A program made the translations under genes and the position numbers. Source: Verrucomicrobiia bacterium (lineage in GTDB: Bacteria > Verrucomicrobiota > Verrucomicrobiia > JABWAM01). Taken from it: a stretch of DNA of 64,000 nucleotides. Every line of letters begins with the position of its first letter. Positions within the stretch are counted from its first letter, which is position 1. The notes under the pieces were generated by a model. It worked only from the letters and a program-made list of their open reading frames with translations. It was not told the DNA's origin and made no database searches. The stretch covers positions 398 to 64,397 of the forward strand of contig JAQUAF010000022.1 in assembly GCA_028687435.1 (NCBI GenBank). The letters run 5' to 3'. Below are positions 48,288 through 63,891 of this stretch, one piece after another.

Positions 48288-48303
48288 GTTAGATGTATCT
48301 AAC
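48288..48303. promoter_or_regulatory. perfect 16-bp palindrome, candidate DtxR/IdeR-type operator in the divergent promoter region
   Basis: GTTAGAT-GT-ATCTAAC. Half-site resembles the TTAGGT/ACCTAA of the DtxR/IdeR box. Sits 14 nt before ATG 48317 and ~70 nt from ATG 48219. Confidence 0.45.
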
Positions 48304-48316
48304 AAAAGGAGTTCGC

Positions 48317-49063
48317 ATGACCGCCAAGCTTTTTCATGAACTGAGCGTTTCGCAGGAAGATTACCTGGAGACGATTCTCGATCTGATCGCGGAGGCCGGG
48401 GCTGCCCGCGTGAGGGATATTGCCAGGCGGATGAATGTGGCCAAGTCGTCGGTGACCGTTGCCCTGCGCTCCCTGGCGTCCAACCGGCTGGTGAACTATG
48501 CTCCCTATGAGTTGGTCACGTTGAGCCATGACGGAAAAGTCATGGCCGAGAAGATCCGCCGGCGGCACGATTCCCTGGCGAATTTTTTGGTCAGGGTGCT
48601 TGGCGTGGATGAAAAAACGGCCGGCGCCAACGCCTGCCGGATCGAGCATGCCGTGGGCGAGGATGTTGTGAACCGGTTGAATTGTTTCGCCGAATTTCTG
48701 CCGAACAGCGATATCCCGGCCAGGGAATTGGCGGGGGCCTTTGCAAAGTTTTATGCGGAGCGGGAAAAGAGGGGTGGCTTCCGGGAGAGTGGGGGCGGCG
48801 GTTCCCCTCCGAAAGACACGGACGGGACGCCGTCAACGGCGGCGGATTTGAAGCCGGGCGAGACGGCAAGGATTGTCCGCGTTTGCGGGGAGGGAAAGAG
48901 CCGCCGGCGTCTTCAGGAAATGGGGGTGACGCGGAACGCCCCGCTGGCGGTTATCCGTCGGTCTCCCTTGGGCGATCCGATTGAGGTGAAGGTGCGCGGC
49001 GGCAGCCTGTCGCTCCGCAAGGAGGAAGCCCGGGAAATCGAAGTGGAAAGAGTAAAACAATGA
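48317..49063 (+). CDS. DtxR/MntR-family metal-dependent repressor with C-terminal FeoA/SH3-like domain
   Basis: SQEDYLETILDLI...VRDIARRMNVAKSSVTVALRSL HTH. C-terminal LKPGETARIVRV...PIEVKVRGGSLSLRKEEA. AAAGGAG RBS before 48317. Confidence 0.85.
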   Translation: MTAKLFHELSVSQEDYLETILDLIAEAGAARVRDIARRMNVAKSSVTVALRSLASNRLVNYAPYELVTLSHDGKVMAEKIRRRHDSLANFLVRVLGVDEKTAGANACRIEHAVGEDVVNRLNCFAEFLPNSDIPARELAGAFAKFYAEREKRGGFRESGGGGSPPKDTDGTPSTAADLKPGETARIVRVCGEGKSRRRLQEMGVTRNAPLAVIRRSPLGDPIEVKVRGGSLSLRKEEAREIEVERVKQ

Positions 49064-49410
49064 ATTTTCAGGACAAAGCCAAAACAAAGGAGCTTTCGGC
49101 GGCCTGCGTGCGATCCGCGCCGCCTCCAGGCGTCGTGCCGCTGGCGATGGCGGCGGTTGGGGAGACTTGCGAACTGGCCATGGTGCGGGGCGCCAATCTG
49201 CGGCAGCGGCTGGCTGACATGGGATTGGGATTGGGATCGCGTTTCCGGGTGGAGGCGGGGGAGGGAAAAGGGCCCATGGTGATTTCCGTCAGGGGAAGCC
49301 GGTTGATTTTGGGATGCGGCATGATTCACAAAATTTTTATCCGGTTAACGAGCCGTGATTCGAAGTCCGGCCGGCCCGCCGCCTCTCAACAGAAAGGATC
49401 CGCCTCGTGA
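49060..49410 (+). CDS. feoA: FeoA-family protein
   Basis: VPLAMAAVGETCELAMV...LADMGLGLGSRFRV...VISVRGSRLILG. Overlaps neighbours by 4 nt on both sides. Confidence 0.7.
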   Translation: MNFQDKAKTKELSAACVRSAPPPGVVPLAMAAVGETCELAMVRGANLRQRLADMGLGLGSRFRVEAGEGKGPMVISVRGSRLILGCGMIHKIFIRLTSRDSKSGRPAASQQKGSAS

Positions 49411-51596
49411 GCGCCGTTGCCACCCCGCCATCCAAGAGGGCCGCCCGCGTTGTTGCGCTGGCGGGAAATCCAAATTCCGGCAAGACCACCATCTTCAACG
49501 CCCTGACCGGCGCCCGGCAGCATGTGGGCAACTACCCGGGCGTGACGGTTGAGAAGAAGGAGGGAACCGTAAAATTCGGGGATGATGTTTTTACGGTGGT
49601 CGATCTGCCCGGGACCTACAGTTTGACGGCTTTCAGCCTCGAGGAAATCGTGGCGGGGAACTTTTTGATCGACGGGAAGCCGGATGCGGTTGTGGACATT
49701 GTTGACGCGTCCAATCCGGAGAGGAACCTGTATCTGGCGGTTCAACTCATGGAATTGGGGGCGCCGGTGGTTCTGGCGTTGAACATGTCGGACATGGCCC
49801 GCGAAAAGGGGCTGAGCATTGACACGAAAAAACTGTCAGCCTTGCTGGGAATGCCCGTGGTTGCCACTGTTGGACATAAGGGAAGGGGGTTGGAGGAGCT
49901 TTTGAAGGCTGTCCGGACGATTTGCCGGGATGATCCTTTGCCGCCGAAACCGGCCCGGCGGGTGGATTATGGACGCGAGATCGAACCGCATCTCGATCAA
50001 TTGGCCGCCCGGCTGGCCGTCCGTCCGGCCTGCGCCGGACATGCGCGGTGGCTCGCCTTGAAATTGTTGGAAGGAGACGGGGACACGGCCAACCGCATCA
50101 GGTCGCTTTGCCCGGAGGATTGCGGGGATATTTTCCGCGAGACGGACAAGTTGCGCAAGCATTTGGAGGGTGTTTTTGGCGAGGAAATCGGCGCTGTTCT
50201 GACGGACCGGCGTTATGGATTCATCGCCGGTGCGTGCGCCGAGGTTGTTTCGCAAACAGCCGAGGCCCGCATTTCACAAAGCGAACGGGTGGACCGGATT
50301 GTCCTGAACCGATGGCTGGGATTGCCGATTTTCGCCCTGCTGATGTTCGCCACATTTTTTCTGACTTTCACGCTTGGCCAGCCCTTGATGGATGGCATTG
50401 AGGCGGGTTTTGGAAAGCTTGGCGAAGCGGTGGCGGCGCTGTGGCCGGCGGGCGGCGAAAGCCGGTTGAAATCGCTGTTGGTGGATGGAATCATCGGCGG
50501 GGTCGGCGGGGTGTTGGTTTTTCTGCCCAACATCATGCTGCTGTTTCTTGCCATCGCGTTTCTGGAGGACAGCGGCTATATGGCCCGGGCGGCGTTTGTC
50601 ATGGATCGTTTGATGCACAGGATTGGCTTGCATGGGAAAAGTTTCATTCCCCTGTTGATTGGTTTTGGCTGCACGGTTCCGGCCATCATGGCCACAAGGA
50701 CGCTGGAAACCCGCCGGGACCGCCTGGCGACTCTCCTGGTGCTGCCATTGATGAGTTGCAGCGCCCGGCTTCCCATTTATGCCCTGCTGATCCCGGCCTT
50801 TTTTCCTCCGGAGTGGCAGGGGCCCATGTTGTGGATCGTTTATGCGATTGGAATTGCGCTGGCCGTTGCGGGTGTGAAGTTGCTGCGCATCACTCTTTTC
50901 AAGGGGGAATCGGCGCCGTTTGTCATGGAACTCCCCCCTTATCACCTGCCCACTTTGCGGGGGTTGCTTGTTCACATGTGGGAGCGCAGTTGGATGTTTC
51001 TCAGGAAAGCCGGAACCGTCATTTTGGGAATTTCCATTCTGTTATGGGCCATGTCCGTCTGGCCCAAGCCGGGCCCGGAAACCATGGCGAAATTCGAAAG
51101 GGATCGCTCCGCCATTGAAGCCCGCAAGGATTTGTCCGGCGAGGACAGACGGGCGGCGCTTGAGAAATTGGAGCATGAGCAGGGAGAGGCGGAATTGGAG
51201 CAATCCCTGATTGGACGGATTGGCCGCGGCGTCGCGCCGGCGCTGGCGCCGCTCGGATTCGACTGGAAAATTTCCACATCCCTGCTTGGCGCCCTGGCGG
51301 CCAAGGAAATTTTTGTCGCCCAGATGGGGATTGTTTATTCCGTGGGACAGGCGGATGAGGAATCGCAATCGCTTCGCGAAAAACTCAGGGAAAATTACAG
51401 CCCCTTGCAGGGGTTTTGCGTCATGCTGTTTTGCCTGATCAGCATGCCCTGCATGGCCACGCTGACGGTTGTCTGGCGGGAAAGCGGATCGTGGAAATGG
51501 GCGCTTTTCCAGGCCGGCGCCCTGACGGCGCTGGCCTACACGCTGACGCTGGCGGTGTTTCAAGCGGGGAGCTTTTTGGGATGGGGAACCCGGTAA
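49407..51596 (+). CDS. feoB: ferrous iron transporter FeoB
   Basis: G-domain VALAGNPNSGKTTIFNALTG and DLPGTYSL, followed by a polytopic membrane domain. GTG start in a GTGA overlap. Confidence 0.9.
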   Translation: MSAVATPPSKRAARVVALAGNPNSGKTTIFNALTGARQHVGNYPGVTVEKKEGTVKFGDDVFTVVDLPGTYSLTAFSLEEIVAGNFLIDGKPDAVVDIVDASNPERNLYLAVQLMELGAPVVLALNMSDMAREKGLSIDTKKLSALLGMPVVATVGHKGRGLEELLKAVRTICRDDPLPPKPARRVDYGREIEPHLDQLAARLAVRPACAGHARWLALKLLEGDGDTANRIRSLCPEDCGDIFRETDKLRKHLEGVFGEEIGAVLTDRRYGFIAGACAEVVSQTAEARISQSERVDRIVLNRWLGLPIFALLMFATFFLTFTLGQPLMDGIEAGFGKLGEAVAALWPAGGESRLKSLLVDGIIGGVGGVLVFLPNIMLLFLAIAFLEDSGYMARAAFVMDRLMHRIGLHGKSFIPLLIGFGCTVPAIMATRTLETRRDRLATLLVLPLMSCSARLPIYALLIPAFFPPEWQGPMLWIVYAIGIALAVAGVKLLRITLFKGESAPFVMELPPYHLPTLRGLLVHMWERSWMFLRKAGTVILGISILLWAMSVWPKPGPETMAKFERDRSAIEARKDLSGEDRRAALEKLEHEQGEAELEQSLIGRIGRGVAPALAPLGFDWKISTSLLGALAAKEIFVAQMGIVYSVGQADEESQSLREKLRENYSPLQGFCVMLFCLISMPCMATLTVVWRESGSWKWALFQAGALTALAYTLTLAVFQAGSFLGWGTR

Positions 51597-52131: not shown

Positions 52132-53487
52132 ATGCCGCGCGCGCTGTTGTCAGCATTCATGTTGTTCGTTTACAATGTCATTGCCCAGACGCAAAACGTT
52201 TCCCCGGAACATCCCAAGCCGCCGCCAAAGGCTGAAATCCCCTCTCTCATGGAGAGGGAAACCTTGACCGATCATTGGTTTGGAGCGGGGAGCTTGTTGG
52301 AGGAAAGAGGAGTGTCATTTTCCTGCGAACTGACCCATGAAGCTCTGGCGAATGTCTCCGGCGGCATTCGCAGGGGAACAGCCAGCGAGGGACTGCTGGA
52401 TTTCGGAATGACCTTGGATCTGGAAAAAATGTCCGGATGGAAAGACGGAACGTTCCATGCCAATGGCTTGTGGATTTATGGCGTCAGCCCCACGGCCAAG
52501 TATGTCGGCGATTTGCAGGGGGTCAGCAATATCGACGCATGGGACACGGTTCGTTTGGATGAAATCTGGTATCAACATGAATTTTGGGGAAAACGGATAT
52601 CGCTCAGGCTTGGGCAGCTTGCGGCGGACAAGGAGTTTGCCGTCAGCGAATACTCCGGGCTTTTCTTGAACGGCGCCTTTGGCTGGCCGGCCTTCATTGC
52701 GGCAAACGCCGCGACTCCGGCCTATCCGCTTTCCACCTTTGGCGCCCGCCTCCGGACCGATCTTCCGAACTCATTTTATGCGCAGGCGGCGGTTTTCGAC
52801 GGCGACCCGGGGGATCAGCAAATCAACAATCATGGAACTCACTGGAATCTCAACAGCCGGGATGGCCTTTTCAGCATTTTTGAGGTTGGGTGGGCTGGCG
52901 CGCCCAAGATTGCCGGCATGGAATTGCCGGGCGCCTATAAGCTGGGTGTTTGGAACCATACCGATTCTTTTGCGGATCAATTGCACGATCAGGAGGGGGG
53001 ATCGCTGGCGGATCCCTCAACGACCGGCAATGAACGGCTGCACGAGGGAAATTATGGCGTGTACGGCCTGTTGGATCAGATGGTTTTTCGGGAAAAAGCA
53101 ACGGATTCCGATGATGTCCAAGGTTTGGGGGTCTTTTTCAAGGCCGGTTCGGCGTCCGAAGACCGCAACCTGGTGTCCCTGCAGCTTTCAGGAGGGATTC
53201 ATTACGAGGGGCTCTTCCCCGGAAGGAATCAAGACTGCTGCGGATTGGCGGTGACACGGGTTGAAGTCGGCGACCATGTCCGTCTTTTTGATTGCGACGC
53301 CAATTTTTACAATGAAACCGGCGCGCCTTTGCGCGGGAATGAAACGACGGTCGAGATGACTTATCAACTTGTCATTAGCCCCTGGTGGACTGTGCAGCCG
53401 GATTTGCAATGGGTGTTTCATCCCGGCGCGTCATCCGCCACGGGCGATGCCCTTGTGATTGGAGTCCGGTCGAAAATTGTTTTCTGA
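52132..53487 (+). CDS. oprB: carbohydrate-selective porin, OprB family
   Basis: RETLTDHWFGAGSLLEERGVSFSCELTHEALANVSGG. Beta-barrel ending ...VIGVRSKIVF. Confidence 0.8.
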   Translation: MPRALLSAFMLFVYNVIAQTQNVSPEHPKPPPKAEIPSLMERETLTDHWFGAGSLLEERGVSFSCELTHEALANVSGGIRRGTASEGLLDFGMTLDLEKMSGWKDGTFHANGLWIYGVSPTAKYVGDLQGVSNIDAWDTVRLDEIWYQHEFWGKRISLRLGQLAADKEFAVSEYSGLFLNGAFGWPAFIAANAATPAYPLSTFGARLRTDLPNSFYAQAAVFDGDPGDQQINNHGTHWNLNSRDGLFSIFEVGWAGAPKIAGMELPGAYKLGVWNHTDSFADQLHDQEGGSLADPSTTGNERLHEGNYGVYGLLDQMVFREKATDSDDVQGLGVFFKAGSASEDRNLVSLQLSGGIHYEGLFPGRNQDCCGLAVTRVEVGDHVRLFDCDANFYNETGAPLRGNETTVEMTYQLVISPWWTVQPDLQWVFHPGASSATGDALVIGVRSKIVF

Positions 53488-53630
53488 TTTTGGCTGGCGA
53501 TCTCGCCAGAGGGTGTAACCGAACGGACTCTTTCAACAACGGGAGGTGAAAACGGGGTTGCTCATTTCAATGCGCATGCCAGGCGGTTTTGCTCGACAAG
53601 ACGATTCCAATTTTGAAAATTGACTGTGAC

Positions 53631-54119
53631 ATGGCTGCAAATCACAACCGGAAAGGATCCTTTCTTTATCTTGTCATGACGGCCATGGCCGCGCTGATCC
53701 TGCTGGCCTCCTGCGGAAACGATCCGGTTGCCGCCAATCGCCGGAATTGCCAGAGACAACTGAAACAGGTCTGGCAGGCGATCGAATGCCATCGGGAAAA
53801 ACACGGCGGCCAATATCCGGCGTCTCTCGACGCCATCAGGCAGGAGATGCCTGGCTGGACGGCGGCTTGCCCGGGACGGGATGGAAAATCGGATTCCGGG
53901 GGGGATTATTTTTATCTCAATTGGTCCGAATTGGCCGGGAAAGACGGCAAAGTGAGGGATCATGATCCATTGCTTTACGACCGCCGTCTTGCGCATCATG
54001 GCGGGAAGGGAATTTGTGTTTTACGAGTGGATGGCTCCGTCCGCTGGGACAAGGACGCCCGATGGTTAAAGAGATTTGCCAGGGAGCGCCCTTCGCTGAA
54101 AATTCCCCTGCCTGAATAA
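53631..54119 (+). CDS. lipoprotein with DUF1559-like (H-X9-DG-type) features
   Basis: Lipobox LLASCG. NCQRQLKQVWQAIECHREKHGGQYP and HHGGKGICVLRVDGSVRW resemble planctomycete/verrucomicrobial DUF1559 proteins. Weak call. Confidence 0.45.
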   Translation: MAANHNRKGSFLYLVMTAMAALILLASCGNDPVAANRRNCQRQLKQVWQAIECHREKHGGQYPASLDAIRQEMPGWTAACPGRDGKSDSGGDYFYLNWSELAGKDGKVRDHDPLLYDRRLAHHGGKGICVLRVDGSVRWDKDARWLKRFARERPSLKIPLPE

Positions 54120-54199
54120 AAATTTGCGGGTTAATTGTAATTTTGTTGACAGGCATGGCTGAAAAAGAGTAGGTGGGTGGCATTGTTAGTTTTGTTCTT

Positions 54200-54360
54200 T
54201 GTTCGCGTGTTGCGGCGCAGGGAATCCCGTGCGAATCGGGAACGGTAGCGCCACTGTAACAGGTTACGAATTTCCGATAAGCCAGTTCCGGCAAGGCCGG
54301 GATGAAGGCGGAAATGAGGTTTGAAACCTGAAGTCAGGATAACGGCCGCAATGCTCTCAA
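54200..54360 (+). promoter_or_regulatory. cobalamin (B12) riboswitch
   Basis: AGGGAATCCCGTGCGAATCGGGAACGGTAGCGCCACTGTAAC core containing the GCCACTG motif. B12-box-like AAGTCAGGATAACGGCC. Closing helix TGCGGC (54211) / GCCGCA (54345). Boundaries approximate. Confidence 0.75.
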
Positions 54361-54484
54361 TGCGGTCCGCCTTGGGGCGGATCGAAAAACCTTGTTCGCA
54401 TAAACAAGATTGGGGGATTGGTTCGTTGTCCAGGTCGCTCCTGTCCACCGGCTGGTCTCTCAGCTTTCAGAGGAGATTTCAGCC

Positions 54485-55954
54485 ATGAGTTGCAACCATT
54501 CCGTTGATCCATCCCGTTGTCCCATTTGCGGCCAACCCAATCATTGTCGTTTGGCCAAGGAAGAACCCGGCAGCGCGCCTTGTTGGTGCGCCAGCCAAAA
54601 AATTGGCGATGCGGTTTTGCGTCATATCCCTTCCTTTGCTCTGCGGCGCGTCTGTGTTTGCCGGTCATGCGTCGAAAAATTCAGTGAAACCGAACGTCCA
54701 GCCGCCATCGACGGCTTTTGCTTCCATTCGGCTGAAAAGCCGCAATGGTTGCCGGGACTTTCCTCCATGGTTGGCGCCATTCTTTTGGCCATTGGGATGG
54801 CCGGCCAGCCGGTTTTAGCCCAGTCGGTGGCGACCAATTTGGTTGAAAAGGCGGAAATGGCCAAAAAGGAGGAATCAACCAGGCAGAAGCATATCATGGA
54901 CGAGGTGGTGGTCACCGCCACCCGAACATCGAAGAATACGGATGAGACGCCGTCCAGAACCACAGTGGTGGATCGCGAGAAGATGGAGACCATGCCCATG
55001 ACGACTCTCGACGATGCTCTCAAAAATGAATCCGGCCTTTTTGTGGAACGCCACAAGGGCTTGGCGGATTCCGCCGCCCGGGTGCAGGCCCGCGGCATGG
55101 TGGGGCAAAATCGCACCTTGATTCTGTTGGACGGCATGCCGCTTAACAACGGTTATAGCGGAGGAGTCCAGTGGAACGTCTTGGGCATGGAAAATGTCGG
55201 ACAGGTGGAGGTTGCGCGGGGCGCCGGGTCGTCGCTCTACGGCGGATCCGCCATGGGGGGCGTGGTGAACATCATCCCCCAAATGCCTGAAAAGTTGGAG
55301 TTTGGCGCCAAGACAGGCTTTGGCAGCGACAACACGCTTCGTTACAGCGGCTATGTCGGCGATGTCATCAAGGAGAAGTTTCGTTTCCGGCTCGGTTATG
55401 AGGCGGAAAGCACCGATGGTTATCCTTCCATGCCGGCGTCCCTCAGCACCGCCAGGCCCACGGCGGGGGCGGGTGTTTTGTCGGGAGGTTATCCTTCTCA
55501 ATCTTCGTCCGGCGCTTCCAACTGGATCGTGGGCGACAAAGGCGACAATTACGCCTCCCGTTGGAATGGCAATTTATTGGCTGATTACAAAGTGTCGGAA
55601 ACCGGCCGCCTGTCGCTTCAATATCAAATGGGACATTATGAGTATGGCTATGGCGATCCTCATGCGTATTTGACGGATAGAAGCGGCAACTCGGCTGAAG
55701 CCGGGCGCGTGACGGTTGACCGGAACCGGTATGTGACGGCCTCGATCAGCACGTTCAATAGCTCCGCAACCGATTATTTCTGGAACCAATACAATTCGGG
55801 GCTGAAGTACGAGGATCAATTTGGCGACCTTCAATTTACAGGCAAGGCGGGTTTTCAGCTTTTTGAACAGGTTTACGCGACAAGCAGCGCGACCGGCGCC
55901 CAAGGGTGGGGCGATGCGCCCGGTTCGCAGACCGATTCCACCGGACGTTCCTAG
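54485..55954 (+). CDS. TonB-dependent receptor, N-terminal part (Cys_rich_CWC-like domain + signal peptide + plug + first barrel strands), ends at an in-frame TAG
   Basis: CPICGQPNHC...APCWCAS...VCVCRSC; MVGAILLAIGMAGQPVLAQS; DEVVVTATRTSKNTDETP plug. GAGGAG RBS before ATG 54485. Confidence 0.8.
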   Translation: MSCNHSVDPSRCPICGQPNHCRLAKEEPGSAPCWCASQKIGDAVLRHIPSFALRRVCVCRSCVEKFSETERPAAIDGFCFHSAEKPQWLPGLSSMVGAILLAIGMAGQPVLAQSVATNLVEKAEMAKKEESTRQKHIMDEVVVTATRTSKNTDETPSRTTVVDREKMETMPMTTLDDALKNESGLFVERHKGLADSAARVQARGMVGQNRTLILLDGMPLNNGYSGGVQWNVLGMENVGQVEVARGAGSSLYGGSAMGGVVNIIPQMPEKLEFGAKTGFGSDNTLRYSGYVGDVIKEKFRFRLGYEAESTDGYPSMPASLSTARPTAGAGVLSGGYPSQSSSGASNWIVGDKGDNYASRWNGNLLADYKVSETGRLSLQYQMGHYEYGYGDPHAYLTDRSGNSAEAGRVTVDRNRYVTASISTFNSSATDYFWNQYNSGLKYEDQFGDLQFTGKAGFQLFEQVYATSSATGAQGWGDAPGSQTDSTGRS

Positions 55955-55969
55955 TATGGTGAATATCAG

Positions 55970-57040
55970 GTGAGCTATCCCATTTTTACCGATCATCTTC
56001 TGACAGGGGGGATGTCTTTCCGATATGACGATTACGATCAGGATTCCTATGATTTGCGTTATTACCGGGAATTCAACACCCGGATCGGACGGACTGGACT
56101 GACCCAGGGGGCGAGCGCCACCCAGGCGGTGTTTCTCCAGGATGAGTGGAAGGCGCTCCGGGATTTGGTTCTCTACGGTTCCGTCCGTTTCGACCATTGG
56201 TATTCCTTTGATGGCGTGTCAGCGGGAGGGCCGGCCGCATCCGCCACGGGGGGAACGGTCGGATCCCCGACCCACTATGCCGCGCCGAGCGATTGGGGGG
56301 TGAGTCCGAGGATCGCGCCCGTCTGGCATGCGCTGGAGGACACCTATTTGCGGGCATCCATCAGCGAGGCTTTTCGTCCCCCGAACCTCTATGAGATGTA
56401 CCGCGGTTACGCCTATGGCGCCACCACTTATCTTGGCAATCCCGATCTCAAGCCGGAAACCGTGTGGAACTATGAATGCGGAGTGGACCAATATGCGTGG
56501 GAACGGCGGATCAAGGCTTCGGCCACCTATTTTCATTGGGATGCCTCGGACATGATTGACAACATGGATGTCGGCAACAATCTGAAGCAGCAGCAGAATT
56601 TTGGCGAGGTCCAGGCGGACGGGGCGGAATTGGAGTTGTCCGTCAAACCCTGGGATTGCCTGCGTGTCTGGAGCAATTACACTTATACGGAAACCGAGAT
56701 CACCAAGCACGATTATCAACCCGCTTTGGTGGGAAAGAGGCTGGCTTATGTTCCGCAACGCGTCATCAACGTGGGAACCGATGTTCTCTCCAAATGGGTG
56801 GATTGGGGAATCCATGGACAGTACCAGGGGAAAACCTATGCGCTCGATCTCAACAACGATGTGGAGAATGTGTATGGCACTTTCACCCGCTGCTGGCTTT
56901 GGGACACCAAGTTGACCGTCAAGCCCATCGAACATTTGAGCATATCGGCTTCCATTCAAAACCTTTTCGACAAGGATTATTACTCTTACAACATCGGACG
57001 GGGCCGCACCTTCGTGTTGGAAGCCGCATGCCGGTGGTGA
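55970..57040 (+). CDS. TonB-dependent receptor, C-terminal barrel part (same frame as 54485-55954)
   Basis: LTGGMSFRYDDYD, NPDLKPETVWNYECG, C-terminal GRGRTFVLEAACRW. Separated from the N-terminal part only by TAG 55952-55954. Confidence 0.75.
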   Translation: MSYPIFTDHLLTGGMSFRYDDYDQDSYDLRYYREFNTRIGRTGLTQGASATQAVFLQDEWKALRDLVLYGSVRFDHWYSFDGVSAGGPAASATGGTVGSPTHYAAPSDWGVSPRIAPVWHALEDTYLRASISEAFRPPNLYEMYRGYAYGATTYLGNPDLKPETVWNYECGVDQYAWERRIKASATYFHWDASDMIDNMDVGNNLKQQQNFGEVQADGAELELSVKPWDCLRVWSNYTYTETEITKHDYQPALVGKRLAYVPQRVINVGTDVLSKWVDWGIHGQYQGKTYALDLNNDVENVYGTFTRCWLWDTKLTVKPIEHLSISASIQNLFDKDYYSYNIGRGRTFVLEAACRW

Positions 57041-57065
57041 GAGGCGTTGGAAAAAGGAGATCATT

Positions 57066-57803
57066 ATGGAATTGGATGTTTTGTTTTGGATTGGAGGCAT
57101 GATATTCAGCCTGGGCATCTTCGCGGTCAAAACGGGTTTGGGATTTGGCTTTGGCGGAGTGACATGGAGGAGCATGGCCATGATCCTGCCTCTTTATTTG
57201 ATTTTGTTTGTGCTGCTTGCCCTGGCGTCGCAAACCGTGCTGTCAAGGTTGACGCCGGTTTTGCAAAAGGGCCCCTGGCTGCATTTGTCGATGGCGGCGG
57301 GATTGATTGGCTGGGGCGTTTACCTGATTTGGAGGGATGGGGGATGCCGCCATTGCGGCAAACGGAAAGAGACGTCATCAAAATCCTTCCTGTTACTGGC
57401 CATTCCCTGTCCGGTTTGTCTTGCCGCCATGGCTTTTTCAACCGCCATGGCGTTGAATGCGATTCCCTGGCATCCCGCCTGGGTTGGGGTGGTTGTGGGG
57501 GGCGTTTTTGCGCTTCTTGTCCTTCCGACTTATTTTTCCGTCAAATTTTTTGCCCGTGAGTTGCCGCCTGCCGAGCGCGAACTCAGGCTGGGATTGGCCA
57601 TGATTTTTGTCGGGTTGTATTTCATCGCCTCCCTCTTCCTGCCGGGATACATCGAACAGGCCAAACTGGCTTATGGTTCATTCGCGGGCGAAGTCTCCCA
57701 TGCTCCCCGCCAGGACATGTGGGGCGTTTTGGGTTTGCTGGCGGCGTGTCTGTTTGCGGGCTTTTTTATTCCACAATTTGATCAAAAAGGAGCATTCAAA
57801 TGA
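57066..57803 (+). CDS. polytopic membrane protein with CRHCG and CPVC motifs (DUF2162-like by context)
   Basis: 245 aa, ~7 TM helices. AAGGAG RBS. Family assignment from memory of CobN/MotA/DUF2149/DUF2162 neighbourhoods; low certainty. Confidence 0.6.
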   Translation: MELDVLFWIGGMIFSLGIFAVKTGLGFGFGGVTWRSMAMILPLYLILFVLLALASQTVLSRLTPVLQKGPWLHLSMAAGLIGWGVYLIWRDGGCRHCGKRKETSSKSFLLLAIPCPVCLAAMAFSTAMALNAIPWHPAWVGVVVGGVFALLVLPTYFSVKFFARELPPAERELRLGLAMIFVGLYFIASLFLPGYIEQAKLAYGSFAGEVSHAPRQDMWGVLGLLAACLFAGFFIPQFDQKGAFK

Positions 57804-58465
57804 ACCTGTTGGCCGGTCTGGAAACTTTTCTCTATGTTGTCTCGTCCGCCCTTTTTCTGCCGGTGGTGGCGGCATTGGTGTTGTTGACGTTCTGGATGTT
57901 CATCTGCCTGGGAAGTTTTCTCCGGGAATGGCTGGATCGGAGGAAGGGGATTTCACCGGCGGTGAATCGCTACGAAACCAGCCTTGCCGGAGCGTTGTTG
58001 ATCGCTCCCGCCGGGGAAATCGACCTCTATCTGGAGCGGCTGCTCCAGAGCGCTGAATTGGATTTGGTCCGCTCGCTGGACCGTGTGCGGTTTGCCATTC
58101 GCGTGGGGCCGGCCCTGGGGCTGATGGGCACCCTGATTCCCATGGGCATTTCGCTGGCCGCCCTGGCGCAGGGGGATATGCCCAAAATGGCTGGAAGCAT
58201 GGTGACCGCGTTCACGGCCACGGTGGTGGGGCTTGCCTGCAGCGTGGCGGCCTATCTCATGTCGCTTGCCAGGGAAAAATGGGTGCGGGCGGACATGCGC
58301 GAAATGGAATACTATACGGAGGTGGCTCTGCGGCAGGCAATGCCCCAAAACATCGAAGAGCGGCGATCCTCGGCTGCCGCCCGCGATGCCGGCCGTCCGG
58401 AACCTGACGCCAGGGAGAAAATGGAGGAAGACGATGAAGTATCTGAAACGTCGCCGTCGGTTTGA
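57800..58465 (+). CDS. MotA/TolQ/ExbB-family proton channel protein
   Basis: VGPALGLMGTLIPMGISLAAL...MVTAFTATVVGLACSVAAYLM. ATGA overlap with the upstream stop. Confidence 0.75.
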   Translation: MNLLAGLETFLYVVSSALFLPVVAALVLLTFWMFICLGSFLREWLDRRKGISPAVNRYETSLAGALLIAPAGEIDLYLERLLQSAELDLVRSLDRVRFAIRVGPALGLMGTLIPMGISLAALAQGDMPKMAGSMVTAFTATVVGLACSVAAYLMSLAREKWVRADMREMEYYTEVALRQAMPQNIEERRSSAAARDAGRPEPDAREKMEEDDEVSETSPSV

Positions 58466-58784
58466 AAAATACGACCAACCGCTGGAGGATCCCATCGCAG
58501 GGGTGGCCAACCTTTTCGATGCCAGCGTGGTTTTTATCGTCAGCATGATGATTGCCCTGTTCATGGCCTACAACATGCTTGATTTGGTCAATCCCAATTC
58601 GGAGGTGACCATGACCAAGAAAACATCCGATGGAGGAGTGGAAATCATCACAAAGAAAGGGAGGGAAATCAAAGTGCGGAAAGTGACCGATAAAAAACTC
58701 GGCGGAGAGGGAACGCGTCTGGGAACCGCTTATCAATTGACCGATGGGAGAGTTGTCTATGTTCCGGATGAAGATAAAAAATAA
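58434..58784 (+). CDS. DUF2149-like single-TM protein (ExbD-position partner)
   Basis: MKYLKRRRRFEKYDQPLEDPIAGVANLFDASVVFIVSMMIALF. GGAGGA RBS. Overlaps the end of the ExbB-like gene. Confidence 0.6.
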   Translation: MKYLKRRRRFEKYDQPLEDPIAGVANLFDASVVFIVSMMIALFMAYNMLDLVNPNSEVTMTKKTSDGGVEIITKKGREIKVRKVTDKKLGGEGTRLGTAYQLTDGRVVYVPDEDKK

Positions 58785-61700
58785 ACAGGTTTTTGCCGGA
58801 TTCTTTCGAATCAACCTCATGGTTTTCTGGCTTGTCGCATGCAAAGTGCCGGCTGTCGCGAATGGCGCCGGGACGACGGTCGGATTGCTGTGGGGAGATG
58901 GACATTCCAAGTCTGCCGTTGAGGTTGTCCGGACATTGGCCGGCGCGGAGGAACAATCGGGAAATCCCGGACTCCAACAGGTGAAATTCATTTCGTTTTC
59001 AACGCAGGACATCCGGCGGGGTTCGTTGGAGGGATTGGACCAATGCCGTCTGGCGCTCATCCGCACCATGAGCCGCGAGGATATCGCGAAACTTAAACCG
59101 ATTTTTAACCGGATCACCGCAAGGGGAGGCAAAGTGTTTTCAGTGGATGCGGCGTATGTTGAGGAATGCCGGGCCACCGGAATTCTCAAGGATGAAAAAC
59201 TTCAGGCTTATTTTCACAATGGAGGCATGGATAATCTGAAAAACATGGTTTGTTATGCCATGGCCAAGGGGCTTGGCATTTCATGCCGATATGACGCTCC
59301 GGCGGGCGTTCCCATGGCGGGAATTTTCGACTGCCGGACCGGACGCGTGTTGCAACGGTTCGAGGAGTACCGGCAACTGTTGGAGTCTGATCCGGCGAGG
59401 AAAGGATTGACGAAAAAACCCTGGATCGGAATCGTTTGCCAACGCAATACCGTGCTGGCCGGACAGGATAAACCGCTCAAGGCGGTGGCGGCGGCCTTGG
59501 AACGCGGGGGATTCAACCCTTTGCCCGTGTTTCATTATCCGTCGGAAAAGGCGATTGAGGCGTTTTTTTTCGGGCCGGCCGGCCGGTCCCGGGTGAAATG
59601 CGTCATTGCCCTGGCGGTAAAGATGCCTGCCAAACCCGCGGAGGTGGCTGCGGTCTTGAAAAGGTTGGATGTGCCCGTCATAGATGCCATCACGCTGGTC
59701 AGCCAGTCGCCGGATGAATGGAAACAGTCGACGGTGGGGCTGGATGTCAGTGAGCGGACCTGGCAGATAGCCCTGCCGGAAATGAGCGGCATTGGGCAAC
59801 CCACGGTTGTGGCCGCCAAAGAGCGGCAACGGGATCCGGCGACTGGAAAGTTTTATGTCGAGGAAGTTCCGATTGAGGAGCGGATTCAAATGCTGGTCCG
59901 GCGCGCGGGCGCCTGGATCCGTCTCCGGGAAAAACCCGATTGTGAAAAGCGGGTGGCCGTCATTTATTACAATTATCCGCCGGGGAAAAACAATGTGGGA
60001 GCTTCCTATTTGAATGTGCTGCCCGACAGCCTGTGCCAGTTGGGGCTGGGGCTCAAAAGCGGCGGATATGATTTGGGGGAATGGAATGGAGGCAAGGAGA
60101 GATTGTTCAATGACATTCATCAATACGCCCGCAATATTGGCAAGTGGGCGCCGGCGGAGATCGACCGGTTGGTCAAAGAGGGGAAACCAGCCCTTTTGCC
60201 CATGGAGAAATACCGCCGATGGTATGCGGAATTGCCGGAAAAATTAAGGCGGTCCATTGAAGCCGATTGGGGGCCGCCCGAGAAATGCGACATCATGACC
60301 TGGCGCGATGCCGGCGGGAAAATGTTCATGGTCCTGCCATCGGTTCAATACGGCAAAATCCTTTTCACTCCGCAACCCACCCGGGGCTGGGATCAGGATT
60401 CGCAAAAGATTTATCATAACGTGACCTTGGCGCCGCATCATCAGTACGTGGCGTTTTACCTTTGGTTGAAAAAGGAATTCCAGGCCGATGCCGTGGTCCA
60501 TGTCGGCACGCACGGCACCCATGAATGGCTGCCGGGCAAGGAAGCCGGATTGTCGGCGGCCTGCCCGCCGGAGGCGCTGCTCCAGGAACTGCCAAACATT
60601 TATCCGTATATTGTGGATAATGTCGGCGAGGGACTTCAGGCCAAGCGGCGGGGCATGGCCACGATCATTGATCACATGACTCCGCCTTTCGACAAGGCTG
60701 GCGCAAACCGGGAGTTAAAGGGGTTGAGCGCGTTGATCACGGATTACGACGCGTCATTGGAAAAAAGTCCCCCCCTGGCCGCCCTGAAGTTGAGGGAGAT
60801 TCAGGCTGGCGCCCAAAAAATGGGCCTGTTGACAGATTTGGGACTGAAAAAAGAATCCTTGGACCGATCGGATGTGCAAAAGCTGGAGCATCACCTTAAA
60901 AATATTGCGGAAAGACAGACCCCATTTGGTCTCCACACTTTCGGCAAGGCGCCGGAGGAAAAAAGGGTTCGTTCCACTGCCGAAGCCATCCTGGCGCTCG
61001 AAAAAGGGCTGTCGGAAAAGGAGCGCCAAAAGAAAATGGATGAAATGATGGAGCGTATCCGGTCTTCCGGAAAAGAGGAGATGGCATCCTTCCTTGCCGC
61101 GCTTTCCGGGCGGTTTGTCATGCCGGCCCAAGGCAATGATCCGGTGCGCAATCCCGATTCCCTTCCGACCGGAAAGAATTTTTATTCGTTCGATCCCGTG
61201 CGCATTCCTCCCAAAGTCGTTTATGAAATGGGCGCGAAACTGGCCCGTGAACTGATCGAGGAATACCGGGGTAGGCATGGCCAATATCCGGACAAGTTGA
61301 CGTTCAATCTTTGGAGCACCGAAACCATTCGCAACGAAGGAGTGATGGAATCCCAGATATTGCATCTCATGGGCATCCGTCCAAAATGGGATGCCACTGG
61401 CAAGGTTTTTGGCCTTGAGGCCATTGCCCGGCGGGAATTGGGGCGCCCCCGGATCGATGTCACCATCATTCCATCGGGTCTGTACCGGGATTTGTTTTCC
61501 AATCTCATGGAATTGCTTGATAAAGGGGTGAGTTTGGCGAAGGCGCAAAACGAGAAGGATAACATTCTTCGGTCCAACATGGAAAAAACCCGGAAGATGC
61601 TGCGCGAGAGGGGCGTTGCCGCTGAAACAGCCGAAAGGCTTGCTGCGGTGCGTTTGTTCACCGTTCCCTCCGGCGCTTACGGTCCCAATGTCGCGAGCGT

Positions 61701-62769
61701 CACTTCCGTTTCCGACACTTGGGAGAAAGAGGAACAGGTGGCCGGTGTGTTCATGATGCGGATGAGTCATCTGTACGGACAGGGATTTTGGGGCGACAAG
61801 GGAACGGACGGGAGCGGGGACATCCGGCAGGTGGTTTTCACCAATGCCCTGGCTGGAACCAAGATTGCCGTTCATGGGAGGTCGAGCAACCTTTATGGAA
61901 CCCTCGATAACGACGATGTGTTTCAATATCTGGGTGGAACGGCCATGGCTGTCCGGGCGGTGGATGGAAAAACGCCGGAAGTCTATGTGACGGAAATGTC
62001 CAATCCCGCCGCGCCCCGGCAGGAAACCGTGGAGCAATACATGGGGAGGGAAATGCGTTCGCGTTACCTGAACCCGGCATGGATCAAAACCATGATGCGC
62101 GAGGGATACGCCGGCGCGCGTTTTGTGAACAAAGTGGTGGAGAATCTCTGGGGCTGGCAGGTGACGGTTCCCGAGGCTGTGGATGGCGCCAAGTGGAACG
62201 AAATGTACGAAACCTATGTGCTGGATCGCAACGGGTTGGATATCAAGCAGATGTTCCGGGACGCCAAAAACATGGCTGCATACCAGGCTTTGGTTTCCCG
62301 TATGTTGGAGACCGTGCGCAAAGGGTACTGGAAACCGGATCAGGCGGTGGTTGAAAATCTTGCCAGGGAATTCGCCGACAGCGTGAAGGAGGCGGGTCTG
62401 GCTTGTTGCGACCATACTTGCAACAATCCGGCCCTGGCAAAGTTCACCGTGGATACGCTGGCGCCTGTTCCTGGCATGAGAAATCTGGCCCAGGATTTCA
62501 CCCGGGCGTTGGAAGACATCCGGCGAATGCCTCCTCCTTCGCCGGCTGTTTCGTCCCAGACAACTGGCATGAAAAAACAAAATGGAACCCCCTCCGCGAC
62601 GGCATCGGGCGGCGTTCAGAAAGCATCCGGCAAAAAGGTGGAAGGATATGAAATGAAGGATGTCACGCCAGCCAGCGGCGGCGCTTCCGCTCCCATTCCT
62701 TATCTATTCATTGCCGGTTTTTTGATTTTGACCGGACTGTTGATGGTTGGATTCCGACGCCGATTTTGA
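58768..62769 (+). CDS. CobN/Mg-chelatase-H-family giant protein with signal-like N-terminus and C-terminal TM anchor (HmuS-like)
   Basis: VAVIYYNYPPGKNNVGASYLNV, VHVGTHGTHEWLPGKE, IIDHMTPPF. N-terminus FFRINLMVFWLVACKVPAVANG. C-terminus PIPYLFIAGFLILTGLLMVGFRRRF. In-frame ATGs also at 58744 and 58759. Confidence 0.85.
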   Translation: MKIKNKQVFAGFFRINLMVFWLVACKVPAVANGAGTTVGLLWGDGHSKSAVEVVRTLAGAEEQSGNPGLQQVKFISFSTQDIRRGSLEGLDQCRLALIRTMSREDIAKLKPIFNRITARGGKVFSVDAAYVEECRATGILKDEKLQAYFHNGGMDNLKNMVCYAMAKGLGISCRYDAPAGVPMAGIFDCRTGRVLQRFEEYRQLLESDPARKGLTKKPWIGIVCQRNTVLAGQDKPLKAVAAALERGGFNPLPVFHYPSEKAIEAFFFGPAGRSRVKCVIALAVKMPAKPAEVAAVLKRLDVPVIDAITLVSQSPDEWKQSTVGLDVSERTWQIALPEMSGIGQPTVVAAKERQRDPATGKFYVEEVPIEERIQMLVRRAGAWIRLREKPDCEKRVAVIYYNYPPGKNNVGASYLNVLPDSLCQLGLGLKSGGYDLGEWNGGKERLFNDIHQYARNIGKWAPAEIDRLVKEGKPALLPMEKYRRWYAELPEKLRRSIEADWGPPEKCDIMTWRDAGGKMFMVLPSVQYGKILFTPQPTRGWDQDSQKIYHNVTLAPHHQYVAFYLWLKKEFQADAVVHVGTHGTHEWLPGKEAGLSAACPPEALLQELPNIYPYIVDNVGEGLQAKRRGMATIIDHMTPPFDKAGANRELKGLSALITDYDASLEKSPPLAALKLREIQAGAQKMGLLTDLGLKKESLDRSDVQKLEHHLKNIAERQTPFGLHTFGKAPEEKRVRSTAEAILALEKGLSEKERQKKMDEMMERIRSSGKEEMASFLAALSGRFVMPAQGNDPVRNPDSLPTGKNFYSFDPVRIPPKVVYEMGAKLARELIEEYRGRHGQYPDKLTFNLWSTETIRNEGVMESQILHLMGIRPKWDATGKVFGLEAIARRELGRPRIDVTIIPSGLYRDLFSNLMELLDKGVSLAKAQNEKDNILRSNMEKTRKMLRERGVAAETAERLAAVRLFTVPSGAYGPNVASVTSVSDTWEKEEQVAGVFMMRMSHLYGQGFWGDKGTDGSGDIRQVVFTNALAGTKIAVHGRSSNLYGTLDNDDVFQYLGGTAMAVRAVDGKTPEVYVTEMSNPAAPRQETVEQYMGREMRSRYLNPAWIKTMMREGYAGARFVNKVVENLWGWQVTVPEAVDGAKWNEMYETYVLDRNGLDIKQMFRDAKNMAAYQALVSRMLETVRKGYWKPDQAVVENLAREFADSVKEAGLACCDHTCNNPALAKFTVDTLAPVPGMRNLAQDFTRALEDIRRMPPPSPAVSSQTTGMKKQNGTPSATASGGVQKASGKKVEGYEMKDVTPASGGASAPIPYLFIAGFLILTGLLMVGFRRRF

Positions 62770-62896
62770 AAGCGCGGATGATCGGATCAGTAAAAACACC
62801 TTCAATGCAGACAAACCCTTCAGCAATTTAAAGGAGATTCCATCCATGAAATGGTGCTTTTCATCCGGTTTATGTCGTGGACGGCGGTCCGGGCGA

Positions 62897-63116
62897 GTTG
62901 TTATCACCATGGCCAAGGAGGGCAGCACCGTGGGAGGACTGACCGACACCATGGGCACGCTGGTTTCATTGTCCCTTCAATACGGCTTCCCCCTTGAGGC
63001 GCTTGTGAAAAAGTTTGTTCATTCCCGTTTTGAGCCAAGCGGAATGACCAAAAATCCGGACATCCCCCTGGCCAAGTCCGTTCCGGATTACATCTTTCGC
63101 TGGCTGGCCGGACAAT
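62897..63116 (+). pseudogene. nrdJ: 3' remnant of class II (adenosylcobalamin-dependent) ribonucleotide reductase
   Basis: VVITMAKEGSTVGGLTDTMGTLVSLSLQYGFPLEALVKKFVHSRFEPSGMTKNPDIPLAKSVPDYIFRWL matches the conserved NrdJ C-terminal region. No upstream catalytic part is present. Confidence 0.7.
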
Positions 63117-63188
63117 TCCCGCCCGGACGCGAACCGGGTCCCCCCCGCCTGAAGCCGCGCCGTCCAAACCTCCATCCGCGGTTGGGCA

Positions 63189-63860
63189 ACGGAAAAATCT
63201 TGACTGATTTTTGTCTGATAGGCAGCCTGCTTGAATATTACGATAAAAAAAACAGGTAATACCAATTATGCTTTTGCTGTTTCAAAAAGGCGGTCCCATC
63301 ATGTGGCCGTTGTTGCTGACGTCGCTGGTGGCGGTGACGGTGGTGTTGGAGCGCTGGCTGTTTGTCTGGCGGTTGAAGAGGGATCGGCAACCGGAGGTGG
63401 TGGAGGCCATTTTGGAGAGGGTTGAGCGCGGGGAGATGGAGGAGGCGGCGCGGGCGGGGGAGGGCAGCCCCGATTTTGTGGCGCGCACGCTGGCTTATGG
63501 GTTGTCCCACCGGGGCAAATCGCTTTCCCATGCGATTCTTCACGCGGCGGGGCAGGAGTTGAGGCAATTCAGCCGGGGATTGCCGGTGCTCGACACCATC
63601 ATCACCCTGGCGCCCCTGCTGGGATTGCTGGGAACGGTGACCGGCATGATTCGCTCCTTTGGGTTGCTGGGGGCCGAACAATTGAGCGCGCCGGTGGCGA
63701 TCACCGGAGGCATTGCCGAGGCGCTGATCGCCACGGCGTTTGGCCTGGGAATCGCGATCGTGGCGTTGATCCCTTTTAACCACTTGAACGCGCTTCTCGA
63801 ACAGGCGCGGCACGAGATGCAGGACGCCGCCACGCATCTCGAGTTGCTTTGCGTCAAGCG
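63189..63860 (+). repeat. copy 2 of the ~670 bp exbB duplication
   Basis: Aligns to 12216-12889 from ACGGAAAAA(A/T)CTTGACTG through GAGTTGCTTTG. Confidence 0.85.
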
Positions 63861-63891
63861 GGATGCTTCACCCCAGGATTCCAAATCTTGA
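63268..63891 (+). CDS. exbB: MotA/TolQ/ExbB proton-channel protein (second copy)
   Basis: Protein identical to exbB-1 from SRGLPVLDTII to THLELLCV. The N-terminal half has scattered substitutions and the C-terminal tail differs. Confidence 0.85.
   Translation: MLLLFQKGGPIMWPLLLTSLVAVTVVLERWLFVWRLKRDRQPEVVEAILERVERGEMEEAARAGEGSPDFVARTLAYGLSHRGKSLSHAILHAAGQELRQFSRGLPVLDTIITLAPLLGLLGTVTGMIRSFGLLGAEQLSAPVAITGGIAEALIATAFGLGIAIVALIPFNHLNALLEQARHEMQDAATHLELLCVKRDASPQDSKS

Follow-up and report, generated by a model that had tools for sequence, protein, structure and literature searches.

A cobalamin riboswitch-led cluster encoding a predicted exported CobN-like protein in a Verrucomicrobiia bacterium, and its possible role in cobalt acquisition from imported cobalt chelates

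Introduction

What a homolog of CobN might do outside the cytoplasm, under the control of a vitamin B12 sensor, is the question raised by a gene cluster at positions 54196 to 62769 of a 64,000-nucleotide stretch of DNA from a Verrucomicrobiia bacterium (GenBank assembly GCA_028687435.1, contig JAQUAF010000022.1, positions 398 to 64,397 of the forward strand). The whole stretch is hereafter called the window, and coordinates are counted from its first nucleotide. A preliminary description, made from the sequence, had reported a cobalamin-riboswitch-like leader followed by genes for a TonB-dependent receptor, three small membrane proteins, and a large CobN-like protein. The reading that we favor, tentatively and with a confidence that falls a little short of an even chance, is that of a B12-riboswitch-repressed BtuS/Hmu-like operon for cobalt acquisition from imported cobalt chelates, such as corrinoids or other cobalt tetrapyrroles.

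Related systems have been described. HmuS of the hmuYRSTUV system of Bacteroides and Porphyromonas was shown experimentally to be an NADH-dependent heme dechelatase (PDB 9d26; Nath 2025, PMC12583661), in which turnover of heme requires His-538 (PMC12583661), and it was proposed from cell fractionation and proteinase K assays to face the periplasm (PMC13227078). Many unassigned islands in the CobN superfamily were noted as well (Nath 2025, PMC12583661). BtuS, a third CobN-related type, was predicted to act in metalloporphyrin salvage (Rodionov 2003, as cited by Rocha 2019, PMC6460266). Bacteroides fragilis carries hmu-like operons without HmuY and with a cobalamin riboswitch in front, for which a cobalamin-related role was suggested (Meslé 2023, PMC10100974). 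On plasmid pSZ77 of Geobacter lovleyi, a cobN-exbB-exbD-tonB cluster without CobST, flanked by TonB-dependent receptors, lies among cobalamin genes (Wagner 2012, PMC3403914), and its role was stated there to be unknown (PMC3403914).

Results

A full-length cobalamin riboswitch leads the cluster

The features of the cluster are as follows.

54196-54364, + strand: cobalamin (adenosylcobalamin, AdoCbl) riboswitch aptamer (RF00174, 58.8 bits, E 5e-12)
54485-54766, + strand: Cys_rich_CWC domain, 94 aa, with a GAGGAG ribosome-binding site in front (PF14375, 1.6e-10)
54767-57040, + strand: TonB-dependent outer-membrane receptor, split in this copy (Plug 2e-24, TonB_dep_Rec barrel 2e-47)
55952-55954, + strand: in-frame TAG splitting the receptor (..TGRS*YGEY.., from reading of the open reading frame, ORF)
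57066-57803, + strand: DUF2162 (HmuT-type) polytopic inner-membrane protein, about 245 aa (PF09930, 1e-54)
57800-58465, + strand: MotA/TolQ/ExbB-family proton-channel subunit (HmuU-type), three transmembrane (TM) helices (PF01618, 6e-11)
58434-58784, + strand: DUF2149 protein (HmuV-type), 116 aa (PF09919, 2e-30)
58768-62769, + strand: CobN/ChlH-superfamily protein that fits the BtuS type, 1,333 aa, two predicted anchors (PF02514 CobN-Mg_chel, 1039 bits)

The leader described as riboswitch-like was recognized by the Rfam covariance model RF00174 over its full length (positions 1-189), well above the gathering score of 31.5, and this was the sole Rfam match at or above its gathering score within the 64-kb window. 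The aptamer lies inside the 365-nt gap that separates the first gene of the cluster from an ORF at 53589-54119. As had been described, the genes are co-directional and tightly packed, all being on the + strand with intergenic gaps of 25 nt or less, or negative. All of the families named in the preliminary description (receptor, DUF2162, MotA_ExbB, DUF2149, and CobN-Mg_chel) were recovered by Pfam. Promoter- or terminator-like matches above chance were absent inside the cluster, and folding of the RNA around the GAGGAG site revealed no extra stability compared with shuffled sequence (z = -1.5). Furthermore, no compositional sign of recent transfer was found, the GC content of the cluster being 55% and that of the rest of the window 52-60%.

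The CobN-like protein is predicted to be periplasmic and differs from HmuS and CobN

We placed the start of the CobN-like protein at Met9 of the ORF beginning at 58744, which is the Met used in the database protein P0001; the two proteins are 99% identical. The size of 1,333 aa, the motif VHVGTHGTHEWLPGKE, and the C-terminal RRRF, all claimed earlier, were present. Hydropathy analysis revealed an N-terminal hydrophobic segment (residues 7-25), which follows KIKNK, and a C-terminal TM helix (1310-1328), after which the chain ends in RRRF. Together with the positive-inside rule, these two segments place the bulk of the protein outside the cytoplasm, in agreement with the earlier view, and we therefore predict an exported, membrane-anchored protein that is largely periplasmic. 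Among 73 homologs, the N-terminal segment was kept in 62 and the C-terminal one in 67. The possibility that the C-terminal anchor is a conserved docking helix found no support, because its conservation (0.38) was lower than the protein average (0.55); VEGYEM, just ahead of the anchor, was the only motif that stood out there.

When the protein was compared with PDB entries by phmmer, HmuS (9d26), CobN (9uk9), and ChlH (4zhj) scored 480, 464, and 418 bits, respectively, which are comparable levels. The His of GTHG and the Glu of NVGEG, corresponding to HmuS His-538 and Glu-577, align, as is common to the whole superfamily, and H590 and E629 of the CobN-like protein were invariant in a 14-sequence alignment. 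Other features of HmuS were missing or undetectable. The Met-rich insertion of roughly 190 residues (HmuS ~700-890, domain IV) has no counterpart in the CobN-like protein, whose 1,333 aa compare with 1,463 in the HmuS chain. HmuS His-254 pairs with a Val, in a stretch of the alignment with low posterior support, and HmuS Met-79 has no aligned counterpart, so that its absence cannot be shown. In searches with the first 341 residues, ChlH and CobN were recovered, whereas HmuS gave no match even at E <= 1. The HmuS dyad Asp-1208/His-1209 corresponds here to Asp1057-Asp1058 in LDNDD, and CobN has LDSDD at this place. None of the CobN or BchH models of NCBIfam was matched by the protein at its curated cut-off (for CobN, 892 against 1248). 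These scores, together with the HmuS-specific features that are missing or undetectable, indicate that the protein is distinct from both HmuS proper and CobN; as judged from the family description cited in PMC6460266, the 'BtuS' type fits it.

Chelatases of the CobNST and ChlHID types have AAA+ partners. No match to PF01078 (ChlI/ChlD type) was obtained among the 30 larger ORFs of the window that were scanned, as the preliminary description had stated, and no CobS or CobT gene was found in the window.

The DUF2162, ExbB-like, and DUF2149 partners

The DUF2162 protein had been described as polytopic, with the motifs CRHCG and CPVC. Both motifs are present, but only the latter is conserved: PCPVC (P114, C115, P116, and C118), placed centrally in the third hydrophobic segment, was invariant in 39 of 39 homologs, whereas CRHCG falls in a loop that varies across the family. 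The protein is a candidate soft-metal permease. An AlphaFold2 model (pLDDT 80.6) found no relative in the PDB by Foldseek (best E 0.37, TM <= 0.37), and a DsbD/VKOR-like fold or a known transporter fold, neither being supported by any PDB fold match, was not retained.

The ExbB-like gene overlaps the DUF2162 stop by 4 nt (ATGA), as had been read and as the coordinates confirm. Its product scored 42.6 bits for PF01618 against a cut-off of 22.9, had three hydrophobic segments by hydropathy, and aligned with canonical ExbB by hhalign at a probability of 86% (E 5e-6). By these profile comparisons, it is a true member of the MotA/TolQ/ExbB family.

The assignment of the 116-aa protein to DUF2149 was borne out by Pfam, and it has a single hydrophobic segment, as expected. 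It consists of an RRRR cytoplasmic tail, one TM helix whose start is the invariant GVANLFD (Asp29), and, on the periplasmic side, a small beta domain. Identity in the alignment reached 81% across phyla, and D29 was invariant. By tblastn against the closest loci, DUF2149 was 73-83% identical to the window across phyla, the highest value of the partners, compared with 59-71% for the ExbB-like protein. In layout only, the DUF2149 protein may be called ExbD/TolR-like. Comparison with ExbD by hhalign brought the Asp residues into register but was not significant (E 0.075). No PDB entry was retrieved with a profile, and a single-sequence model was poor (pLDDT 65.6) and gave no fold match.

The receptor carries a fused CWC domain and an in-frame stop codon

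A TonB-dependent receptor had been reported upstream of these genes. Its signal peptide (MVGAILLAIGMAGQPVLAQS), TonB box (DEVVVTA, about 54899-54919), Plug, and beta-barrel were all identified, but the gene is split by the TAG, and a CWC domain is fused to its N-terminus. The domain, starting at the ATG at 54485, reads in frame and without a stop into the receptor signal peptide, so that it is the CWC domain, not the signal peptide, that is encoded first downstream of the riboswitch. Scores in NCBIfam were under the cut-offs of both the heme-receptor and the B12-receptor models, and the closest relative among receptor loci (L009) was about 50% identical.

A 99%-identical sister contig, annotated as a Verrucomicrobiae metagenome-assembled genome (MAG), has TGG (Trp) at the site of the TAG (..TGRCWYGEY..) and encodes an intact receptor of 851 aa, P0241, in which the CWC fusion is also intact. 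Given the Trp at the equivalent site, the TAG is to be explained by a nonsense allele of this strain or by an error in assembly; since it truncates the receptor, the system may be impaired in this copy.

Two contigs (71,214 and 56,824 bp) hold 99%-identical copies of this region. Protein accessions in one close series (MDD2708417 and MDD27091xx) suggest that both belong to the same MAG, in which case the copies would represent two co-assembled strains or a large duplication.

The CWC fusion was not found in any of the 406 other receptor homologs scored or in any of the 80 related loci, and a survey for Cys_rich_CWC loci gave a single spurious match within a methyltransferase gene. In Sulfurospirillum, the co-induced norcobamide cluster has a gene for a CWC protein, placed between cbiA and sirC (PMC7755780). 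We found CWC proteins mentioned nowhere else in the literature; the case hints that an association of these proteins with corrinoids may recur.

The module is widespread and its riboswitch is the rule in the window's clade

Relatives of the CobN-like gene were surveyed with one genome per species, which gave at least 567 places, and the best 80 loci were kept. Hundreds of full-length relatives (46-59% identity) occurred in Nitrospirota, Thermodesulfobacteriota, Syntrophia, Planctomycetota, Betaproteobacteria, methanotrophs, Bacteroidota, and Verrucomicrobiota; the nearest (51-59%) were from Nitrospirota and Thermodesulfobacteriota. Those with a source name were labeled 'cobaltochelatase subunit CobN' or similar. 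A receptor was located upstream in most related loci, and DUF2162 was found in the window's clade, mostly in anaerobes.

Rfam was run on the window and on 46 of the best 80 loci. RF00174 preceded the cluster in 24 of these 46 loci, across many phyla, and in 20 of 25 loci of the DUF2162 type; a CobN-like gene, DUF2149, and DUF2162 behind a B12 riboswitch are a recurrent neighborhood. In a neighbor-joining tree of 73 CobN-like proteins, the window fell inside a DUF2162-positive, riboswitch-positive clade. Taken with the frequency of the riboswitch in DUF2162-type loci, this placement indicates that riboswitch wiring is the rule for the clade. The earlier view that the wiring to a B12 sensor was unusual or unrecognized must be given up, as the riboswitch leads about half of the loci scanned and such operons had already been pointed out in PMC10100974. 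Tandem cobalamin riboswitches stand before the module in L040 (4791-5348), L079 (4835-5406), and L015 (6705-7173), and L040 has a third one ahead of cbiMNQO.

The ExbB-like/DUF2149 pair directly adjoined the CobN-like gene in 70 of the 76 loci with enough flank, as determined by tblastn and ORF clustering. In 11 loci, the pair accompanies the CobN-like gene although no window-like receptor was detected, and in another 11 loci, as well as in the window, it co-exists with canonical TonB, ExbB, or ExbD genes, in L006 and L012 within the same apparent operon. Current hmu models draw the HmuU/HmuV-type pair as the energizer of the receptor (PMC12583661). The retention of the pair without a window-like receptor and beside canonical TonB genes, together with the normal TonB box of the receptor, makes it unlikely that the pair is merely such an energizer.

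In five loci of marine Bacteroidota (L059-L062 and L065), a 201-aa polytopic protein with no Pfam match and no cysteine replaces DUF2162 in front of the ExbB-like, DUF2149, and CobN-like genes. No receptor is nearby in these loci, and in L061 a riboswitch is directly upstream.

Neighboring genes in related loci point to cobalt and nickel

Neighbor families in the related loci, confirmed by Pfam, were as follows.

ABC ATPase: 12 loci; some adjoin CbiM/CbiQ and are hence of the CbiO type
CbiM: 6 loci; sometimes in apparently one operon with the module (L068, L001, L040)
CbiQ: 4 loci
CbiK: 6 loci; immediately after the CobN-like gene in four
CbiZ: 8 loci; 7 of the 8 begin with a basic and then a hydrophobic segment
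BtuF-like and CbiZ fusion: 3 loci (L038, L049, L074)
TonB: 8 loci
Canonical ExbB: 8 loci, the window included
Canonical ExbD: 6 loci

The start of CbiZ in L005, L008, L022, L040, L068, L070, and L072 looks like a signal peptide, as read from the sequence and not by a predictor. Characterized CbiZ enzymes are cytoplasmic. The apparently exported CbiZ and BtuF-CbiZ proteins suggest periplasmic processing of corrinoids, and they argue that the imported species would be a corrinoid, at least in the cobalt version of the module. A link to corrinoids or cobalt rather than to heme is strongly backed by the conserved neighbors, namely CbiMNQO, CbiZ, BtuF-CbiZ, and CbiK.

NikR genes adjoin the module in four loci (L006, L033, L035, and L036). 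NikR genes or NikR boxes occurred in 7 loci, none of which had a riboswitch. In L033 and L035 (Methylomonas), the order is NikR-HupE/UreJ-receptor-HupE/UreJ-ExbB-like-DUF2149-CobN-like, and L075 (Methylomonas) has the same order from HupE on, with no NikR in the stretch examined. In these three loci, which are without DUF2162, the receptor has a gene for a HupE/UreJ nickel/cobalt permease on each side, and one of the two stands where DUF2162 is found in the window's clade. In L044, perfect GTATGA-N16-TCATAC sites were found at 7871-7898 and 7967-7994, between a divergently oriented receptor and ExbB-like gene; about 0.4 perfect sites would be expected by chance in all 1.33 Mb searched. Near-perfect NikR-type sites occupy equivalent places in L047 (1005 and 5911) and L033 (2555). 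Such a split of regulators marks the cobalt and nickel versions of transporters, including CbiMNQO and NikMNQO, NiCoT, and HupE (PMC7689651). The existence of riboswitch and NikR versions of one module thus argues that its end product is a metal ion.

Comparison with known systems

The window holds equivalents of five Hmu proteins, that is, a receptor for HmuR, the CobN-like protein for HmuS, DUF2162 for HmuT, the ExbB-like protein for HmuU, and DUF2149 for HmuV. The statement that its gene content mirrors hmuYRSTUV was accordingly right for R, S, T, U, and V, but there is no HmuY and the gene order differs; between riboswitch and receptor, no ORF other than the fused CWC domain was present. 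Control also differs, being by a B12 riboswitch and not by iron or heme, and the genome is verrucomicrobial, which agrees with the earlier impression that the host is not a member of Bacteroidetes. The CobN-like protein resembles HmuS in its predicted two-anchor periplasmic layout (PMC12583661, PMC13227078) and in its equivalents of His-538 and Glu-577. Unlike HmuS, it has no Met-rich insertion and no detectable head/neck heme site, and His-1209 is replaced by Asp.

Similarly, the window shares with the BtuS family a distinctness from CobN and ChlH, predicted export and anchoring, clustering with a TonB-dependent receptor, and, for some members, a riboswitch. It differs from the btuS/btuB-linked clusters in being verrucomicrobial and in having the CobN-like gene last. 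The small genes of the G. lovleyi cluster were read as an ordinary TonB system, without recognition of DUF2162, DUF2149, or the hmu link (PMC3403914). In our survey, L040, from a Trichlorobacter MAG, has the exact gene order of the window together with tandem riboswitches, CbiZ, and CbiMNQO.

CobNST and ChlHID (PDB 9uk9, 7c6o, and 4zhj) share the superfamily and the domain plan with the window protein, and LDNDD resembles the LDSDD of CobN. However, those enzymes are soluble, cytoplasmic, and AAA+-driven, whereas the window protein is predicted to be anchored, has no AAA+ partner among the window ORFs scanned, and is paired with the ExbB-like and DUF2149 proteins. CbiMNQO/NikMNQO, NiCoT, and HupE/UreJ are inner-membrane ion transporters, whereas the module would span the envelope with a chelatase homolog at its core. 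Like CbiMNQO and NikMNQO, it has versions behind a B12 riboswitch (cobalt) and versions beside NikR or NikR boxes (nickel).

Downstream and other genes of the window

Two genes follow the cluster on the same strand.

62747-63259, + strand: TSCPD-domain ORF, 170 aa, overlapping the stop of the CobN-like gene (PF12637, 3e-9)
63268-63891, + strand: canonical ExbB, 9 nt after the TSCPD ORF (PF01618, 9e-27)

The TSCPD ORF resembles the C-terminal part of a B12-dependent ribonucleotide reductase (NF005122, 5e-29, positions 770-855 of 960) and is possibly co-transcribed with the cluster. The ExbB clusters with canonical ExbB genes found beside the module in 7 related loci. It is likely part of the TonB system that energizes the receptor, and ExbD and TonB may lie beyond the end of the window. 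The operon probably extends past 62769.

Upstream, metal-related genes encode a P-type ATPase (38109-40007, - strand), an ABC-3 permease (43748-44677, - strand), a DtxR-FeoA fusion (48293-49063), and FeoB (49407-51596); an OprB-family porin is encoded at 52132-53487. In a 535-aa protein (15407-17014, - strand), NifU_N is joined to a ParA/NUBPL-type P-loop ATPase and to a Nitro_FeMo-Co (dinitrogenase cofactor-binding) domain, which makes an unusual three-part Fe-S assembly fusion. A URO-D-family protein (9693-10715, - strand) matches only the C-terminal half of the model and could be a corrinoid-dependent methyltransferase (MtaA/CmuA-like), not a uroporphyrinogen decarboxylase.

Discussion

The cluster of the window is an ordinary member of a widespread and already noticed family. 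For its function, we tentatively prefer cobalt acquisition from imported cobalt chelates. Expression would occur when AdoCbl is low. The TonB-box receptor would import a cobalt macrocycle, powered by canonical TonB-ExbB-ExbD encoded next door, and the anchored CobN-like protein would bind the macrocycle in its class-I chelatase cleft, with the GTHG His and the NVGEG Glu, and free the metal. DUF2162 would then move the freed ion across the inner membrane through its intramembrane CPxC, a task that CbiMNQO or HupE may take elsewhere. By analogy, the precedent of HmuS, a dechelatase of the same superfamily, supports a release of metal.

In this mechanism, the ExbB-like/DUF2149 pair would turn proton flow into work on the chelatase or the permease. 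The pair would stand in for ChlI/ChlD or CobS/CobT, AAA+ partners that cannot act in the periplasm, and we infer that the (de)chelation step may be driven by the proton-motive force. The strict form of this idea is a dedicated proton motor that replaces the AAA+ engine while the periplasmic chelatase strips cobalt from corrinoids, or nickel from nickel chelates in the NikR relatives, and DUF2162 takes the ion. We regard this form as rather unlikely, although by no means negligible.

Several points weigh against cobalt release and its energization as set out above. We know of no enzyme that demetallates a corrin, nor of any member of the window's clade that has been characterized biochemically. 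No canonical intrinsic terminator and no expression platform were found 3' of the aptamer, and the receptor copy carries a stop codon in place of a single intact ORF. The Asp-Asp pair is that of CobN, an insertion enzyme, and the reaction may therefore run in either direction. No structural relative confirms a transporter fold for DUF2162, and the relationship between DUF2149 and ExbD was not demonstrated by profile or fold comparison. Furthermore, mutation of btuS1 and btuS2 did not stop B. fragilis from making protoporphyrin (PMC6460266). Finally, purified HmuS is active in vitro when supplied with NADH, even though HmuTUV is not present (PMC12583661), so that a motor may not be required.

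Other explanations account for part of the evidence. The cluster might import intact corrinoids without removing the metal, the receptor being an analog of BtuB, the CobN-like protein a periplasmic corrinoid-binding and hand-off protein, and DUF2162 with the pair an inner-membrane importer driven by the proton-motive force that replaces BtuFCD. B12 riboswitches classically govern btuB-type uptake genes, BtuF-like proteins and apparently exported CbiZ are encoded in related operons, no btuCD-type permease gene was recognized inside the core module, and HmuS of Porphyromonas gingivalis was proposed to hand heme from HmuR to HmuTUV (PMC13227078). However, riboswitch-less variants with NikR and HupE make little sense for a corrinoid importer, and CbiMNQO ion transporters are co-operonic in L001, L068, and L040. 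The invariance of the cleft His and Glu also argues against a mere hand-off, and DUF2162 is small, with the intramembrane CPxC, typical of sites for ions and not macrocycles, as its sole conserved polar feature. We consider intact uptake unlikely, but a serious contender. The regulatory split and the HupE/UreJ and CbiMNQO neighbors would also suit a TonB-dependent route for Co2+, free or in loose complexes (Ni2+ in the NikR relatives), with the CobN-like protein as a periplasmic metal chaperone that feeds the inner-membrane permease; Helicobacter is known to take up nickel in a TonB-dependent manner, and a specificity for cobalt has been predicted for receptors behind riboswitches (PMC7689651). 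A tetrapyrrole-chelatase scaffold of 1,300 aa, apparently exported CbiZ, and BtuF-CbiZ fusions nevertheless point to a macrocyclic ligand, and the closest characterized relatives all act on tetrapyrroles, which makes the uptake of a bare ion rather improbable.

Heme-iron acquisition as in hmuRSTUV, with the CobN-like protein as a heme dechelatase, could be supposed from the top PDB match, HmuS, from the common set of partner genes, and from the presence of feoA-dtxR and feoB 3-6 kb upstream in the window. We rejected it as very improbable, given that control is by a B12 riboswitch and not by iron, that HmuY and the Met-rich insertion are absent, that the N-terminal 340 aa have no detectable similarity to HmuS, that His-1209 is replaced by Asp and, in a poorly supported part of the alignment, His-254 by Val, and that the neighbors in related loci are cobalt and corrinoid genes, not heme genes. 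As for a cytoplasmic CobN of the ordinary kind, belonging to the aerobic cobalamin pathway, the NCBI name of P0001 ('cobaltochelatase subunit CobN') and the CobN-type LDxDD motif speak for it. It is contradicted by the two predicted membrane anchors, by a score below every NCBIfam cut-off for CobN, by the failure to find CobS/CobT or ChlI/ChlD genes among the window ORFs scanned, and by the constant pairing with ExbB-like and DUF2149 genes in place of cob genes; we rejected it and give it next to no credence.

To our knowledge, several features that emerge from the sequence comparison have not been spelled out in the literature found: the NikR-versus-riboswitch duality of the whole module, the apparently exported CbiZ and BtuF-CbiZ partners, HupE flanking the receptor in loci without DUF2162, the invariant PCPVC, and a dedicated pair that appears distinct from the TonB energizer. 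The instance in the window adds nothing fundamentally new except the odd CWC-receptor fusion.

The importance lies in the family, which is large, spread over many phyla, and almost always misnamed 'cobaltochelatase CobN', and of which HmuS is a heme-specific branch. Comparison of its members leads to the hypothesis that cobalt or nickel is harvested in the periplasm from macrocycles that the cell imports; it is based on the riboswitch and NikR versions, the apparently exported CbiZ and BtuF-CbiZ partners, HupE or CbiMNQO beside or in place of DUF2162, and the pair, which is kept even beside a canonical TonB system. Cultivable species carry the module, in its riboswitch type Azospira oryzae DSM 21223 (L023), Propionivibrio dicarboxylicus DSM 5885 (L025), Desulfobacter curvatus DSM 3379 (L080), and Trichlorobacter lovleyi, and in its NikR type Methylomonas spp. 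(L033, L035). If the hypothesis is true, the family would provide an added route for trace-metal and corrinoid cycling in anoxic communities, and the roles of HmuT, HmuU, and HmuV would be explained. Should the proton-motor reading hold as well, it would give the first case of a corrin demetallated by an enzyme, and the ExbB/MotA motor family would gain a new output.

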